The translations under genes were made by a program, and so were the position numbers. From a phage: a DNA stretch of 64,000 nt. Of this stretch, positions 48,083 through 53,549 are shown piece by piece (the first letter of the stretch is position 1; each line of letters starts with the position of its first letter). The notes under the pieces were generated by a model. It was given only the letters and a program-made list of their open reading frames with translations, searched no databases and had not been told where the DNA came from. The DNA is taken from sequence record OZ556245.1. One strand, written 5' to 3'.

Positions 48083-48574
48083 TTATGCATAGCGAGCTTT
48101 GCTATAGTGTTTAATCCAACTTTCAGGAATGACTTTGTATGTTCCTAAAAATACCACATTGTACAACTTAACGCCATCTTCTACCCATTGATCTGTAATG
48201 TATGCACACATAGCGCGAGTACGATGAGGAAGTGGTTGTCCACCTTCAGTAAATTCAAACTCATAAGGAGCAACGAACTTAATAGCTTGACCGAGTTTCC
48301 ACTTAAAGTCTACACCTACATGCGAAGTATCAATCGTTTCAATTCCTTTAGCAGGAACAGCTTTCAAAAACGCAGATTCAAGAAATTTCGCGCGAACATA
48401 ACCAAACTGAGGTTTAGACTTTCCATCTTTAGGAATGATACGAACTTTTACTTCAGAATCTTCATCTTTAACACCATGCTTAAGCTGAATGCTTACAATT
48501 TCGACCAATTTTCCTGCTGCTTTAGAACGGGATTTATCAGATACACGAGCTAATTCACCAATATTAATAATCAT
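48083..48574 (-). CDS. motB: MotB-like protein
   Basis: 163-aa ORF; length and position consistent with T4 MotB; preceded by early promoter. Confidence 0.55.
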   Translation of the reverse strand: MIINIGELARVSDKSRSKAAGKLVEIVSIQLKHGVKDEDSEVKVRIIPKDGKSKPQFGYVRAKFLESAFLKAVPAKGIETIDTSHVGVDFKWKLGQAIKFVAPYEFEFTEGGQPLPHRTRAMCAYITDQWVEDGVKLYNVVFLGTYKVIPESWIKHYSKARYA

Positions 48575-48650: not shown

Positions 48651-49190
48651 TTAATTCAAAATAGCTACCACCGCACTACGAGGTACTACACTAAAATCAC
48701 CTGCATGAACAACGTTCAGAAGTTCAACACCATCTTCAATCCACTGGTCTGTTACCCAACCACAGACCGAAACAAATGGGGTCTTGATAGCTACAGCACA
48801 AGTCAAAAGGTCAGTAGGATCGCATTCTTGAAAGAGGATAAGCTCTGCTTCAAAGACTATAGTTTTAATTACTTCATCATTATCTAAGCGTTGTGCTCGA
48901 ATCACATAAGCTTTATTCTTATCATGCCAATTACTTTTTGAAAAACTTTTAACCACAAACTCGCCTTCACCAAAAACACTAGTCAATGCTTTATAACCCA
49001 AACTTAGTTCAGTAGTTTTAATTTCAGTTTCAACCAGTTTGTAGGTTTTGCCGATTTCAATAGCGGTAGTCATAGTAGGTTCCTTAATTTCTAGTGGTTT
49101 AACAGGGCATACATAAGTGCTTACAACATCAAAATCAATCAGTTTAGCTACCGGATTTGGTGTGTATTCAGGATTATAATTAAATTTCAT
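48651..49190 (-). CDS. paralog of the adjacent MotB-like protein
   Basis: 179-aa ORF sharing a C-terminal motif (VTDQWIEDGVELLNVV vs ITDQWVEDGVKLYNVV). Confidence 0.5.
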   Translation of the reverse strand: MKFNYNPEYTPNPVAKLIDFDVVSTYVCPVKPLEIKEPTMTTAIEIGKTYKLVETEIKTTELSLGYKALTSVFGEGEFVVKSFSKSNWHDKNKAYVIRAQRLDNDEVIKTIVFEAELILFQECDPTDLLTCAVAIKTPFVSVCGWVTDQWIEDGVELLNVVHAGDFSVVPRSAVVAILN

Positions 49191-49756: not shown

Positions 49757-50440
49757 TTATCGTTTTGTTGGAAGAGACAGAGGATCGCACTCTTCCTCTG
49801 ACGGAGCATCTTCAAGACCCATAGCATATCGCAAAGCATACTTCATCATCAGGATGTCTTTCGCACAGTCATGAATAGAATCATGCGCAACGAATCCGTC
49901 TAAAGTTCCCTTTGGAAGAGGACATGTAGTCATATCACGAACAAGCAGAAGTGCTTCAATTCTGGTACGAATATCACGCTGATTCCAGAATTTACATGGT
50001 TCTAACTTAAATGTATCAAGCTCATTCTCAGAAACGCCGTTAAAACGTTGAATATCACGAATGAGATCGACTAAAATTGGAAAATCAAACGACATTCCAC
50101 GGCACCAGCCTTGAGATTTCCAAGGATCAATGTTATGTGCATTGATGTAATCATTAAATTTTGCAATACCGTCGATAGTGCTTACATCTTCATCTGATGG
50201 CGCAATATTTTTTCGAGCTTCAGGAGATTGATTTTTCCACCATTCGATAGTGCTTTTAGTAAAAAGACGATGTCCTTTTTGGCTTTTTAAATCAAACTTG
50301 ATTTTAATGCCGCGTGAAACTAATTCATCAAATGTTTCAACTACTTCTGGGTTAGGATCAAAGGCAATAACAGCTAAGTCAATAACAGCTGCTTTTTCAC
50401 CGCTTCCCATTGTTTCAAAATCTATAATAAAATCAAACAT
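49757..50440 (-). CDS. dexA: exonuclease A (DnaQ-like 3'-5' exonuclease)
   Basis: 227-aa ORF with FDFETMG-type Exo I motif; length as T4 DexA. Confidence 0.85.
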   Translation of the reverse strand: MFDFIIDFETMGSGEKAAVIDLAVIAFDPNPEVVETFDELVSRGIKIKFDLKSQKGHRLFTKSTIEWWKNQSPEARKNIAPSDEDVSTIDGIAKFNDYINAHNIDPWKSQGWCRGMSFDFPILVDLIRDIQRFNGVSENELDTFKLEPCKFWNQRDIRTRIEALLLVRDMTTCPLPKGTLDGFVAHDSIHDCAKDILMMKYALRYAMGLEDAPSEEECDPLSLPTKR

Positions 50441-50715
50441 TAAATTTTCCTCGCTAAATCGCGAATTTGACCTACAGTATAATCTTGGATATAAACTTTA
50501 TTAACGGGCTCATCAATAAATTTTGCCATAGATTCAATATCTTTTTGTATCTCTTCAAGACTGTATACTATCTTTAAAGCTTTTTCGCGAATAGTAACAT
50601 TATCAGGTCCTGGATTTTCTTGAATGACAGCTTTAACATTTGCCATAAGAGATTTAAACTGATGCAAACTCAATTCAATCATTAATAACCGCCTTATAAA
50701 GATGGCTAATTTCAC
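50440..50715 (-). CDS. small paralogous protein A
   Basis: 91-aa ORF; alignable to the two neighbours. Confidence 0.45.
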   Translation of the reverse strand: MKLAIFIRRLLMIELSLHQFKSLMANVKAVIQENPGPDNVTIREKALKIVYSLEEIQKDIESMAKFIDEPVNKVYIQDYTVGQIRDLARKI

Positions 50716-50935
50716 CTAAAATATAATCACTGATTGTAACAGTTTTCACTTCACCGCAAAAGAATTCTAACGCAATCAAATCTCGTTCAATTTCTTCCAA
50801 TTGAAGCATTAACTTGCCTGATTCAATTTTTACATTTGTACGATTTTTACTATAAGCTATTTCATAAATTTCGCTCACTTTATCTTGAAGCAGATAAAAC
50901 TGGTCTTTAGTTATTTCCACGAATAGCTTCCTCAA
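50675..50935 (-). CDS. small paralogous protein B
   Basis: 86-aa ORF; shares LEEI..D...V.I.DY..G.I pattern with A. Confidence 0.45.
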   Translation of the reverse strand: MRKLFVEITKDQFYLLQDKVSEIYEIAYSKNRTNVKIESGKLMLQLEEIERDLIALEFFCGEVKTVTISDYILGEISHLYKAVIND

Positions 50936-51167
50936 ATTTAATTAGTAATTTACAGACACTTTCATCTAGCGTAATTACCGTATCTGTATTACTGTGATAT
51001 GATTGTTTTTCAATTCGTTTAATTGCTAGTATAGTATCACTTATAAGATTAAGCTTATAAAGGAGCTCAGCTCCTGTTACCATAACACTGAGGTTATCTT
51101 GCTTATCAGTGTGCTTCTTTATACCATCTATTAGACGATTTAAATATTTTGAATTGATGTTAATCAT
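50907..51167 (-). CDS. small paralogous protein C
   Basis: 86-aa ORF; weaker similarity to A and B. Confidence 0.4.
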   Translation of the reverse strand: MININSKYLNRLIDGIKKHTDKQDNLSVMVTGAELLYKLNLISDTILAIKRIEKQSYHSNTDTVITLDESVCKLLIKFEEAIRGNN

Positions 51168-51173
51168 ATATCC

Positions 51174-52493
51174 TCACACATAAAACACATCATAACGACC
51201 ACGAGTGACACCAACATAAAGAAGCTGCTGAGCCAATTCAGCGTCTGCATAATGAATACAAGGCGTATAGATGAAAGCACGGTCTACAGACATACCCTGC
51301 GCTTTATGGAACGTTGATGCAGGAAGTGCTTTCACTTTACTAAACTGTGATTTAGCATCCCAAAAATCACTCCACGGAGCTTTTCCACCTTTATTCCAAT
51401 TTTTATAAGTTTCTGCTGTTTTACCTAAAAATAGGTTAAACTTATACAGCTCTTCATCAGATGAAATTATTTTAATCTTTTCACGATAATATTCATCATC
51501 GCCGTAAGTTTCTACTGTTAAATCCCAATGACGAATTAGATATTCTCCAGAAACACCACGAGCTTTAACAAATGTTGATGTATACTCTGCTTCTATAATA
51601 CGAACTAATTGTCCGTTATTAAAAATAATTTCTGACACAGGCTTTCCATCAATTTTATATGTTTTAATTAATGGTTCCTGCATTACAATAATTTCACCAA
51701 CGATAAAATCTTTATCAGTTTCAAAAATCTTTTTGCGAATAATGCTATTTAACTTATCAACAGATTTATTCGTAAATGCCATTACGCGATTTTCAAACAA
51801 ATCATCTAGTGATTTTACGATTGAAAAATAATTTACCATAAAATCGCGTAAAGCGGTATCACCAGTAAATCCACGTACTCCATGGCCGTCAACAACTTTA
51901 TCATAAATCCACTTACCGTTGCGAACATCAGTAGCTACATCAATAATAGGAGCATTACTGCGTTTAACTTCAGTGAGTTCACACTGATAAAAATCTTTAT
52001 GTGTAAAGAATGGACTGATATAAGCAGTGTTTTCTCCTGGGTCAACAGGTCTAATTTGCTTATTATCCCCTATTCCAATTATAGTACACCATGGCGGGAT
52101 AGTTGAAAGTAGAATTTTGAATAGCTTTCTATCATACATTGACACTTCGTCGCAGATTAATACTCTGCATTTAGCTAAATCCGGTACTTCTTTTTGTTCA
52201 AAAAGAACGTTTTCTTCATATGTTACTGGGTTAATTTTAAGAATACTGTGAATAGTACTCGCTTCTTTCCCTGACAGTTTTGAAAGAATCTTTTTAGCTG
52301 CATGTGTAGGAGCTGCTAAAATAATGCCAGTTTCGCCTGTAGATATTAAGGCTTCAATGATAAACTTGGTAAGAGTAGTCTTACCAGTACCGGCAGGTCC
52401 ATTAATAGTCACATGATGTTTCTTTTCTTTGATAGCCCTCATAACAATGTTAAAGGCATTTTTCTGACCTTCGGTCAAATCATCAAATGTCAT
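51174..52493 (-). CDS. dda: Dda DNA helicase (SF1B)
   Basis: 439-aa ORF, Walker A GPAGTGKTT; length as T4 Dda. Confidence 0.93.
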   Translation of the reverse strand: MTFDDLTEGQKNAFNIVMRAIKEKKHHVTINGPAGTGKTTLTKFIIEALISTGETGIILAAPTHAAKKILSKLSGKEASTIHSILKINPVTYEENVLFEQKEVPDLAKCRVLICDEVSMYDRKLFKILLSTIPPWCTIIGIGDNKQIRPVDPGENTAYISPFFTHKDFYQCELTEVKRSNAPIIDVATDVRNGKWIYDKVVDGHGVRGFTGDTALRDFMVNYFSIVKSLDDLFENRVMAFTNKSVDKLNSIIRKKIFETDKDFIVGEIIVMQEPLIKTYKIDGKPVSEIIFNNGQLVRIIEAEYTSTFVKARGVSGEYLIRHWDLTVETYGDDEYYREKIKIISSDEELYKFNLFLGKTAETYKNWNKGGKAPWSDFWDAKSQFSKVKALPASTFHKAQGMSVDRAFIYTPCIHYADAELAQQLLYVGVTRGRYDVFYV

Positions 52494-52801
52494 CGTAAAT
52501 TCCCTGCAATTGGTATACTAACAATACGCCCAGTATCTAAAATTCGCCGATATAATCTTTGTGTGTCTACATCAGGCTTAACACGTTTAACTTCTATTTT
52601 ATTAAACCAAAACTTGCGTGGAGTCTCAACTAATCTCGGAATTCCCATACCTAAAGCTAGTCGATACTGCTCTTTAAGAGTAGTAAATACTTTATCAGCA
52701 ATCTCCCTTTCAAAAAATACAGCAGGGCGATGTTCATCAAGCGGAACTGGCGCCGTAAATCCATCTTTATCTCTATAAACTATCGCATATACATAAAACA
52801 T
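52490..52801 (-). CDS. hypothetical protein
   Basis: 103-aa ORF. Confidence 0.5.
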   Translation of the reverse strand: MFYVYAIVYRDKDGFTAPVPLDEHRPAVFFEREIADKVFTTLKEQYRLALGMGIPRLVETPRKFWFNKIEVKRVKPDVDTQRLYRRILDTGRIVSIPIAGNLR

Positions 52802-52802
52802 A

Positions 52803-53549
52803 TTATCCTCGGATAAGTTTAAAAATTGAACAATTTAGCGGGTATCCTCTTTTCAGTTTAAGTTTATCAATAAAAGACAAGTTTTGATACCGCTCTACAC
52901 CTTGAATAATTTTATCACACATATCATATTGCATTTCTGCTTCTGACAACTTTTTCACAGTTTTCCAATCCGAGCCTTTAAGAAGAACGTTCAATTTAAC
53001 AACTTCAGCGCCTTCTGCTATACGAGAACCATCAATACGAGCTTTGAGTGCTACAATCGTTAGCTTAATATCAGAGGTTTGTTTTGATTTAGAAAGCTGA
53101 GAAATGTGTTCAATTCTGTTTTCACGTTTTTTCTGTATAGCTTTAATTTGATTATAAGTCTTTTTGATTTTAGCCCATTTCTTTTCATCTAAATTTAATT
53201 TATGAACTTTTTTCGCAGATGAACGACCAATTCGCAAAGCAAATAAATCACGCTTTTCAATCAACTCTTCTAAAGTATAATCAGAACGAAATGTATTGTA
53301 CTTTTTCTTTACTGCAATAACATTCCCTTTAATGTATCCAACGTTATTATCAAAACGTTCTAATGATAATTTCTCTCCTTCAATATGGTTATCAAAAGGT
53401 TCTCCCGAGTAAGCGCAAACTTTCTGATCTAAAATGTTCTTAATGTAATTGAAGTCTAAGTTAAAATCTTTAGAACGTCTTTTGGCAGATGCCTGAGTGT
53501 GCTCTAGACGACGTGTAATTTTACGAATTTGATTTTTAGACAGTTTCAT
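52803..53549 (-). CDS. srd: Srd-like protein
   Basis: 248-aa basic ORF; length and position as T4 srd. Confidence 0.6.
   Translation of the reverse strand: MKLSKNQIRKITRRLEHTQASAKRRSKDFNLDFNYIKNILDQKVCAYSGEPFDNHIEGEKLSLERFDNNVGYIKGNVIAVKKKYNTFRSDYTLEELIEKRDLFALRIGRSSAKKVHKLNLDEKKWAKIKKTYNQIKAIQKKRENRIEHISQLSKSKQTSDIKLTIVALKARIDGSRIAEGAEVVKLNVLLKGSDWKTVKKLSEAEMQYDMCDKIIQGVERYQNLSFIDKLKLKRGYPLNCSIFKLIRG

Follow-up and report, generated by a model that had tools for sequence, protein, structure and literature searches.

The closest described counterparts of the locus examined here are dexA.1 and dexA.2 of phage T4, two small genes lying between the helicase gene dda and the exonuclease gene dexA. 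We analyzed the same interval in a 64,000-nt stretch of phage DNA (sequence record OZ556245.1; this whole stretch is referred to as the window), a Tequatrovirus (T4-like) segment in which a 1-kb region has matches of 90–99% identity in 498 phage records. The interval holds three small genes in this phage, here referred to as A, B and C. The locus itself is already known: A and B are the T4 genes dexA.1 and dexA.2, and C is a hypothetical protein found in hundreds of genomes. Our literature search found no functional study of dexA.1, dexA.2, C or the Pfam family PF26837. What the present analysis adds is the placement of C in the DexA.1/DexA.2 family, which unites three PHROGs and extends PF26837, the recognition of the reference phage T4 as a derived state with a deletion scar, and a description of the dda-dexA slot as a site holding zero to three copies of one family of T4-like phages that bears no enzyme signature. 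The overall account of one old family represented by three genes, a T4-type deletion and a putative binding role is one that we consider probable.

The three genes are arranged as follows.

50907–51167, minus strand: C, 86 aa, third family member with no T4 counterpart; phrog_4967 (open reading frame, C-free profiles, predicted fold, purifying selection).
50675–50920, minus strand: B, the dexA.2 orthologue, 81 aa, with a GTG start at 50918–50920 (90% identity to T4 DexA.2; phrog_1700).
50440–50682, minus strand: A, the dexA.1 orthologue, 80 aa, with an ATG start (90% identity to T4 DexA.1; phrog_1700; AlphaFold2 model).

At the amino acid level A and B are 90% identical to T4 DexA.1 (NP_049630) and DexA.2 (NP_049631), respectively, and agree with them in length (80 and 81 aa), order, overlaps and position between dexA and dda, with nothing substantive that differs. 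The described counterparts of C are Shfl2p018, RB14ncORF015c, AR1 ar1_017 and KNP5 gp250 (phrog_4967), each a 90–100% identical 86-aa open reading frame (ORF) in the same place; their records give a hypothetical protein without a family, whereas here C is tied to DexA.1/DexA.2 by profile and predicted fold. The RB14 copy of C was matched over residues 7–84 only and is represented by a 58-aa protein (RB14ORF15), which may be a truncated or differently started C allele.

The relationship between A and B was evident from direct comparison. Their Smith-Waterman score was 83, against 27.2 ± 5.1 for shuffled sequences (z = 10.8), none of the 2000 shuffles scored as high, and the two proteins are 26–29% identical; the first-pass annotation of this DNA, which was made from the sequence alone and had aligned A and B over most of their length, was borne out here, and the motif string that it quoted was recovered. 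In phrog_1700, A matches positions 73–159 (E = 1e-42) and B positions 1–80 (E = 8.7e-49). The length of this profile, 160 positions, is probably explained by at least one record (ime09) that annotates both genes as a single 159-aa ORF. Near-identical database homologues of A and B carry the precomputed Pfam tag PF26837.

The weaker similarity of C to A and B that had been claimed alongside did not stand as a pairwise observation: A-C and B-C Smith-Waterman alignments showed no excess over shuffles (z = 1.3 and −0.05, respectively), C is 14–17% identical to A and B, and searches with C alone returned only proteins at least 90% identical to C. The similarity did stand when profiles built without C were used (26–27 bits). 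A hidden Markov model (HMM) of eight slot proteins from seven genera scored C at 27.4 bits (E = 3e-7), with 9.6 bits for the best of 300 C shuffles and 6.2 bits for the best unrelated ORF of the window, and a C-free profile of 31 sequences gave C 26.2 bits, with none of 2000 shuffles exceeding 17.0 bits. C aligned with the family from end to end except for a 6-residue insertion in the alpha2-beta2 loop, and has in common with it an N-terminal beta-strand, an LxxLIxxI motif, an LxxI...AI motif and the beta2 strand. Furthermore, a single PHROG, phrog_5263, was matched by all three proteins (A, E = 3e-4; B, E = 5e-8; C, E = 1.6e-6). These results support the grouping of A, B and C as paralogues in a single family, in which C is a much diverged member missed by PF26837 and by the PHROG that contains A and B. 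One observation weighs against this placement: C orthologues carry no precomputed PF26837 match, and C therefore lies below Pfam's own threshold. Scans of A, B and C against NCBIfam and a copy of Pfam that does not include PF26837 returned sub-threshold noise only (Cnd1, AFG1, ESAT-6, MinE and similar).

Two of the three proteins, A and C, were modeled with AlphaFold2, with mean predicted local distance difference test (pLDDT) values of 95.3 and 89.4, respectively. Both models show the order beta1-alpha1-alpha2-beta2-alpha3 with a three-helix bundle, in line with the single-domain build of family proteins in general (~76–86 aa). The best non-self structural neighbors of C were proteins of the DexA.1/DexA.2 family, at template modeling (TM) scores of 0.72–0.85, and an independently built BFVD model of the Sf25 C orthologue matched the model of A with a TM score of 0.82. 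A sequence search of the PDB with the family profile gave weak coiled-coil (GCN4-like) noise only (E ≥ 0.04) and no experimental structure. Conservation across the family is limited to positions of the hydrophobic core, a Gly/Pro loop and a single acidic site. Among natural variants (49 of A and 28 of B) the core motifs were invariant, and mapping of the variable positions of these same variants revealed no clear hypervariable surface patch. Most members are acidic, with isoelectric points (pI) of 4.2–5.8, and C is near neutral (7.85).

Many RefSeq, GenBank and UniRef records, including those of T4, Killian and Shfl2, name DexA.2 a ‘dextranase’ or DexA.1/DexA.2 an ‘exonuclease’. These labels seem to have spread from the gene symbol dexA.N. 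An exonuclease or dextranase identity was considered for DexA.1/DexA.2 and rejected, as no significant Pfam or NCBIfam catalytic domain was found and the proteins are three-helix bundles of 80 aa with conservation confined to the core; the labels are flagged here as a widespread misannotation. In ime09 (JN202312) the annotated 159-aa ‘dexA.1’ is a fusion of DexA.2 and DexA.1 that corresponds to positions 50440–50920 of the window and is due to a 1-nt deletion 5 nt before the ATG of A. The fusion was not used as Rosetta-stone evidence for an interaction between A and B, since it occurs in one record, arises from a single nucleotide and may be a sequencing error.

Comparison of the three-gene locus with T4 bears on the direction of change. 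The span that differs measures 363 nt in the three-gene form and 131 nt in the T4 type, and two features of the window describe the difference.

50943–51174, minus strand: about 232 nt missing from the T4-type two-gene allele (alignment; breakpoints ambiguous within a few bases).
50907–50942, minus strand: 3′ end of C (…IKFEEAIRGNN, then stop) kept by T4 as a relic (alignment; coordinates from the sequence).

In T4 the dda stop codon is thus followed immediately by the final 36 nt of C, which include the Shine-Dalgarno (SD) sequence and GTG start of dexA.2. In the T4-type relic the first two codons of C are fused in frame to the last ten, giving the 12-codon sequence MIKFEEAIRGNN followed by a stop codon. 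This mini-ORF (T4 segment ~2890–2925) has an ATG that overlaps the dda stop (ATGA) and terminates 14 nt into dexA.2. What the relic preserves is a portion of helix alpha3. Among its residues is Phe77 of C, which, mapped by eye in the alignment to the profile, appears to occupy the conserved alpha3 hydrophobic position of the family; because the relic includes this residue, it is read as a fragment of a once-complete gene. The junction TATGTATGATTAAATTTGAGG was identical in all five two-gene phages examined (T4, T2, PYps11T, Pu-Krd-SF1 and UFV-AREG1), despite differences among them in dda polymorphisms. An identical junction in every two-gene phage examined argues that T4 carries a deletion. 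The suggestion that the third gene is an expansion relative to T4 is therefore reversed, as T4 has dexA.1, dexA.2 and a 12-codon relic of C.

Judged from these sequences, the two-gene state is a single deletion allele, which was probably spread by recombination; by subtraction, about 185 of the 494 records carry it. Either one deletion combined with a synonymous G-to-A change or a pair of deletions would explain the scar. Within Tequatrovirus, C is polymorphic for presence and absence, and the three-gene state is one of the alleles. Phages with and without C that are otherwise isogenic-like amount to a natural experiment for assigning a function to an uncharacterized pre-replicative T-even gene.

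The distribution of the family was assessed with a profile HMM search of 1.84 billion representative proteins, which gave 22 matches at E ≤ 1e-3. All but one were short proteins (21 of 22, 39–86 aa, some of them fragments), and the remaining match, a 653-aa protein aligned in nine short stretches, was judged spurious. C is present in ~309 of ~494 Tequatrovirus records, always at ≥90% identity, and A and B occur in ~530 phage records; conservation of the ORFs, on which the first-pass annotation had made its claim depend, was thereby established for all three. On the sequence searches, the family appears confined to enterobacterial T4-like phages, with zero to three copies per genome. Copy numbers in the dda-dexA slot were as follows.

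RB69 (Mosigvirus): 0 copies; dda and dexA directly adjacent.
Bp7, UGJNEcP3 and C6 (Dhakavirus): 1 copy.
VR7 (Gaprivervirus): 1 copy.
IME523 (Kanagawavirus): 1 copy.
JY1 (Jiaodavirus): 1 copy.
Melville (Gelderlandvirus): 1 copy.
Gravdalen (Winklervirus): 1 copy.
TG1 (Tegunavirus, a Yersinia phage): 2 copies, both family members (2050–2504 of the segment examined).
T4 (Tequatrovirus): 2 copies (dexA.1 and dexA.2).
This window (Tequatrovirus): 3 copies (A, B and C).

The single-copy proteins (Bp7 gp116, VR7 ‘DexA.2’ and those of Melville, Gravdalen, JY1 and IME523) share slot, strand, size and family with A, B and C, and the Dhakavirus protein of the Bp7 gp116 type is 39–45% identical to A and 35–37% identical to B. 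With the family profile, none of the slot ORFs of Acinetobacter phage 133, Aeromonas avDM1, Vibrio CZ01 and Krischvirus G5211 scored above shuffled controls, and the Foldseek likeness to some Acinetobacter and Aeromonas proteins was weak (TM about 0.6). A universal link of the family to dexA was accordingly dropped as a candidate claim, as these four non-enterobacterial or Krischvirus phages have slot ORFs that do not exceed shuffles. Two or three small slot ORFs also occur independently in other T4-like phages, as in TG1 with its two family members and in Acinetobacter phage 133, whose three ORFs (1675–2502 of the segment examined) are undetectable by sequence, one of them weakly alike by fold.

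Selection on the three genes was compared with that on their neighbors. The ratio of nonsynonymous to synonymous substitution rates (dN/dS) of A and B versus T4 was 0.17 at ~10% amino acid divergence; other pairs mostly gave 0.08–0.19, with one close pair at 0.49 and one pair with dS = 0, and the more diverged comparisons lay at 0.11–0.19. The corresponding values were 0.005–0.045 for dda and 0–0.016 for dexA, at 0–2% amino acid divergence. For C the ratio was 0–0.38, and the C alleles of the window and ime09 differ by eight synonymous changes and one nonsynonymous change. A, B and C are all under purifying selection, which on A and B is several-fold to tenfold weaker than on dda and dexA. The rapid diversification that had been proposed for the array holds to the extent that the A and B proteins evolve faster than Dda and DexA; the selection, however, is purifying and not demonstrably diversifying.

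The order of genes on the minus strand is dda.1, dda, C, B, A and dexA, followed by the motB.2/motB.1/motB region. The features flanking the array are listed below.

52909–52914, minus strand: −10-like hexamer TAAAAT upstream of dda.1 (sequence; geometry fits the transcription start site of the T4 dda.1-dexA.1 unit).
52490–52801, minus strand: dda.1, first gene of the transcription unit (ORF; synteny with T4 dda.1).
51174–52493, minus strand: dda helicase gene, directly upstream of the array (ORF; 98% amino acid identity to T4 Dda; annotated as dda in relatives).
49757–50440, minus strand: dexA (exonuclease A), directly downstream of the array (ORF; 99.6% amino acid identity to T4 DexA).

Three consecutive, overlapping minus-strand ORFs of 91, 86 and 86 aa had been described between dexA and dda, and their coordinates and lengths were confirmed for the maximal ORFs (A, 50440–50715; B, 50675–50935; C, 50907–51167). 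The likely true starts give 80 aa for A (ATG at 50682), 81 aa for B (GTG at 50920) and 86 aa for C, and were chosen because relatives annotate them and an SD sequence stands at proper spacing before each. The SD of C (GAGGA, 51171–51175) overlaps the dda stop codon, that of B (GAGGA, 50929–50933) lies inside the 3′ end of C, and that of A is AAGG (50692–50695). With these starts the overlaps are 14 nt for C/B, 8 nt for B/A and 1 nt for A/dexA, where the stop of A overlaps the dexA start (TAATG).

In T4, dda.1-dda-dexA.2-dexA.1 are reported to form one mainly middle-phase unit with a single transcription start site 101 nt upstream of dda.1 and an adenine at −1 (bioRxiv 10.1101/2024.04.04.588121). 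The description of the array as early genes was therefore not upheld, as these genes are reported to be mainly middle-phase in T4 and not strictly early. Counting 101 nt upstream from the ATG of dda.1 in the window leads to about 52902, again with an adenine at −1, and by analogy with T4 the TAAAAT promoter would be functional in this phage. A terminator scan found no convincing terminator between dda and dexA, and scans for sigma-70 promoters and terminators showed no enrichment over shuffles and no notable internal signals. From the gene geometry and the T4 data we infer that the array would be co-transcribed and translationally coupled in this phage as well. A perfect match to the MotA-box consensus (AATGCTTCA) lies within dexA.2 (50802–50810, minus strand); it was treated as a chance occurrence and not as a promoter, as no suitable −10 follows the box. 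The MotA motif occurs 25 times window-wide against an expectation of 13.3, which makes it probable that real middle promoters are among the other sites.

Just downstream of dexA, two minus-strand ORFs (48083–48574 and 48651–49190) have a C-terminal motif in common. They are MotB and a 179-aa ORF in the motB.1 slot, and the motif reads WVEDGVKLYNVVFLGTYKVIPESW in the 179-aa ORF and WIEDGVELLNVVHAGDFSVVPRSA in MotB. The 179-aa ORF is far longer than T4 motB.1 (119 aa), and RB69 also has an ORF annotated as ‘similar to motB’. On the basis of the shared motif, this ORF and MotB may constitute a second tandem pair of paralogues.

As to function, the absence of any copy from RB69 and of C from T4 indicates that the proteins are dispensable. 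Taken with core-only conservation, the untouched core of the natural variants and a mostly acidic pI, this dispensability suggests small binding proteins that are not enzymes and whose surfaces vary. In the mechanism that we propose, A, B and C would act as non-enzymatic, dispensable, stoichiometric binding proteins, produced alongside Dda and DexA before replication, that would modulate a host or phage macromolecule, and the diverged paralogues would recognize different targets or target variants. We advance only tentatively the proposal that they are dispensable non-enzymatic modulators that bind a host or phage macromolecule, most likely in a host-directed or counter-defence role.

The position of the genes may instead suggest that their products serve the Dda helicase, the DexA exonuclease or both, as accessory subunits or as regulators. 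No fewer than eight enterobacterial genera (Tequatro-, Dhaka-, Gapriver-, Kanagawa-, Teguna-, Jiaoda-, Gelderland- and Winklervirus) carry a member of the family exactly in the dda-dexA slot, the copy next to dexA overlaps its start codon (TAATG or ATGA type), suggesting coupled translation, and dda, dexA.2 and dexA.1 are co-transcribed in T4 (bioRxiv 10.1101/2024.04.04.588121). However, RB69 has dda and dexA side by side with no family member, T4 functions without C, and the slot ORFs of the Acinetobacter, Aeromonas, Vibrio and Krischvirus relatives go undetected by the family profile. The proteins also evolve about tenfold faster than Dda and DexA, which would be unusual for obligate subunits. 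We regard a role as helicase or exonuclease accessories as rather unlikely, though it deserves to be kept in mind beside that of dispensable binding proteins.

The history of the paralogues can be addressed through their nearest relatives. The nearest relatives of C are the single-copy proteins of Gelderland-, Gapriver- and Winklervirus (z = 6–7; 22–27% identity), and not its neighbors A and B (z = 0–1). Those of A and B are each other and the single-copy protein of Dhakavirus (35–45% identity). This pattern implies that all three are old lineages and that none is a fresh duplicate. A recent tandem amplification was rejected on the same relationship of C to proteins of other genera and on the low identities within the array (26–29% for A-B, 14–17% for C with A or B). 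The matches of C to other genera, in place of A and B, would also be expected if C had been acquired horizontally from another T4-like genus beside the resident pair and later lost in the T4 lineage. At 22–27% identity, however, the databases offer no plausible recent donor, and ancient duplication followed by differential loss accounts for the same pattern; we consider horizontal acquisition unlikely. Still less credible is that C is an unrelated small gene in the same slot whose resemblance reflects generic convergence of helical bundles, given its 26–27 bits with C-free profiles (at most 17 bits for 2000 shuffles and 6.2 bits for other ORFs of the window), its end-to-end alignment with common motifs and beta strands, the phrog_5263 match common to A, B and C, and top structural neighbors that are specifically DexA.1/DexA.2-family proteins. 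That dexA.1 or dexA.2 was recently duplicated in tandem, giving this phage a third, fast-diverging copy, might be suggested by the two genes in the T4 interval and by slot copy numbers that differ between genera, but is extremely improbable given that C occurs at ≥90% identity in 309 phage records, that T4-type genomes retain its last 10 codons and start context at one identical junction, and that C is nearest to other genera's single-copy genes (z = 6–7) and pairwise unrelated to A and B (z = 0–1).

Within the proposed role of dispensable binding proteins, one specific form concerns host immunity. Mass spectrometry of T4-infected cells revealed DexA.2 with a cGAS conjugate on Lys5, and DexA.2 is one of two phage proteins with a Cap2-dependent cGAS conjugate (PMC10097602). 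This conjugation and the co-transcription with dda were all the data that our search turned up on the two T4 proteins, and the conjugation was the sole link to a bacterial defence system. Lys5 is conserved in B. The family might thus consist of polymorphic counter-defence or host-factor binders whose paralogues cover host variants, with DexA.2 as a partner of type II CBASS (cyclic oligonucleotide-based antiphage signaling system), a speculative reading to which we give little credence. If it were true, DexA.2 would take part in Cap2-mediated cGAS conjugation at Lys5 as either a decoy substrate or a sensed target, and host immune repertoires would be tracked both by whether C is present and by the copy number of zero to three.

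Several small T4 proteins serve in host takeover or counter-defence, among them Arn, Dmd and Stp. Another T4 protein, Acb2/Vs.4, is a sponge for cyclic GMP-AMP (cGAMP) (PMC10097602). The searches showed neither a sequence relationship nor a specific fold relationship between Acb2/Vs.4-like T4 proteins and A, B or C, and the likeness between them is a guess at the working mode and not a statement of membership. It consists in what the two sets of proteins have in common: both are small and non-essential, are expressed ahead of replication, show polymorphism among T-even phages and lack an enzymatic signature.

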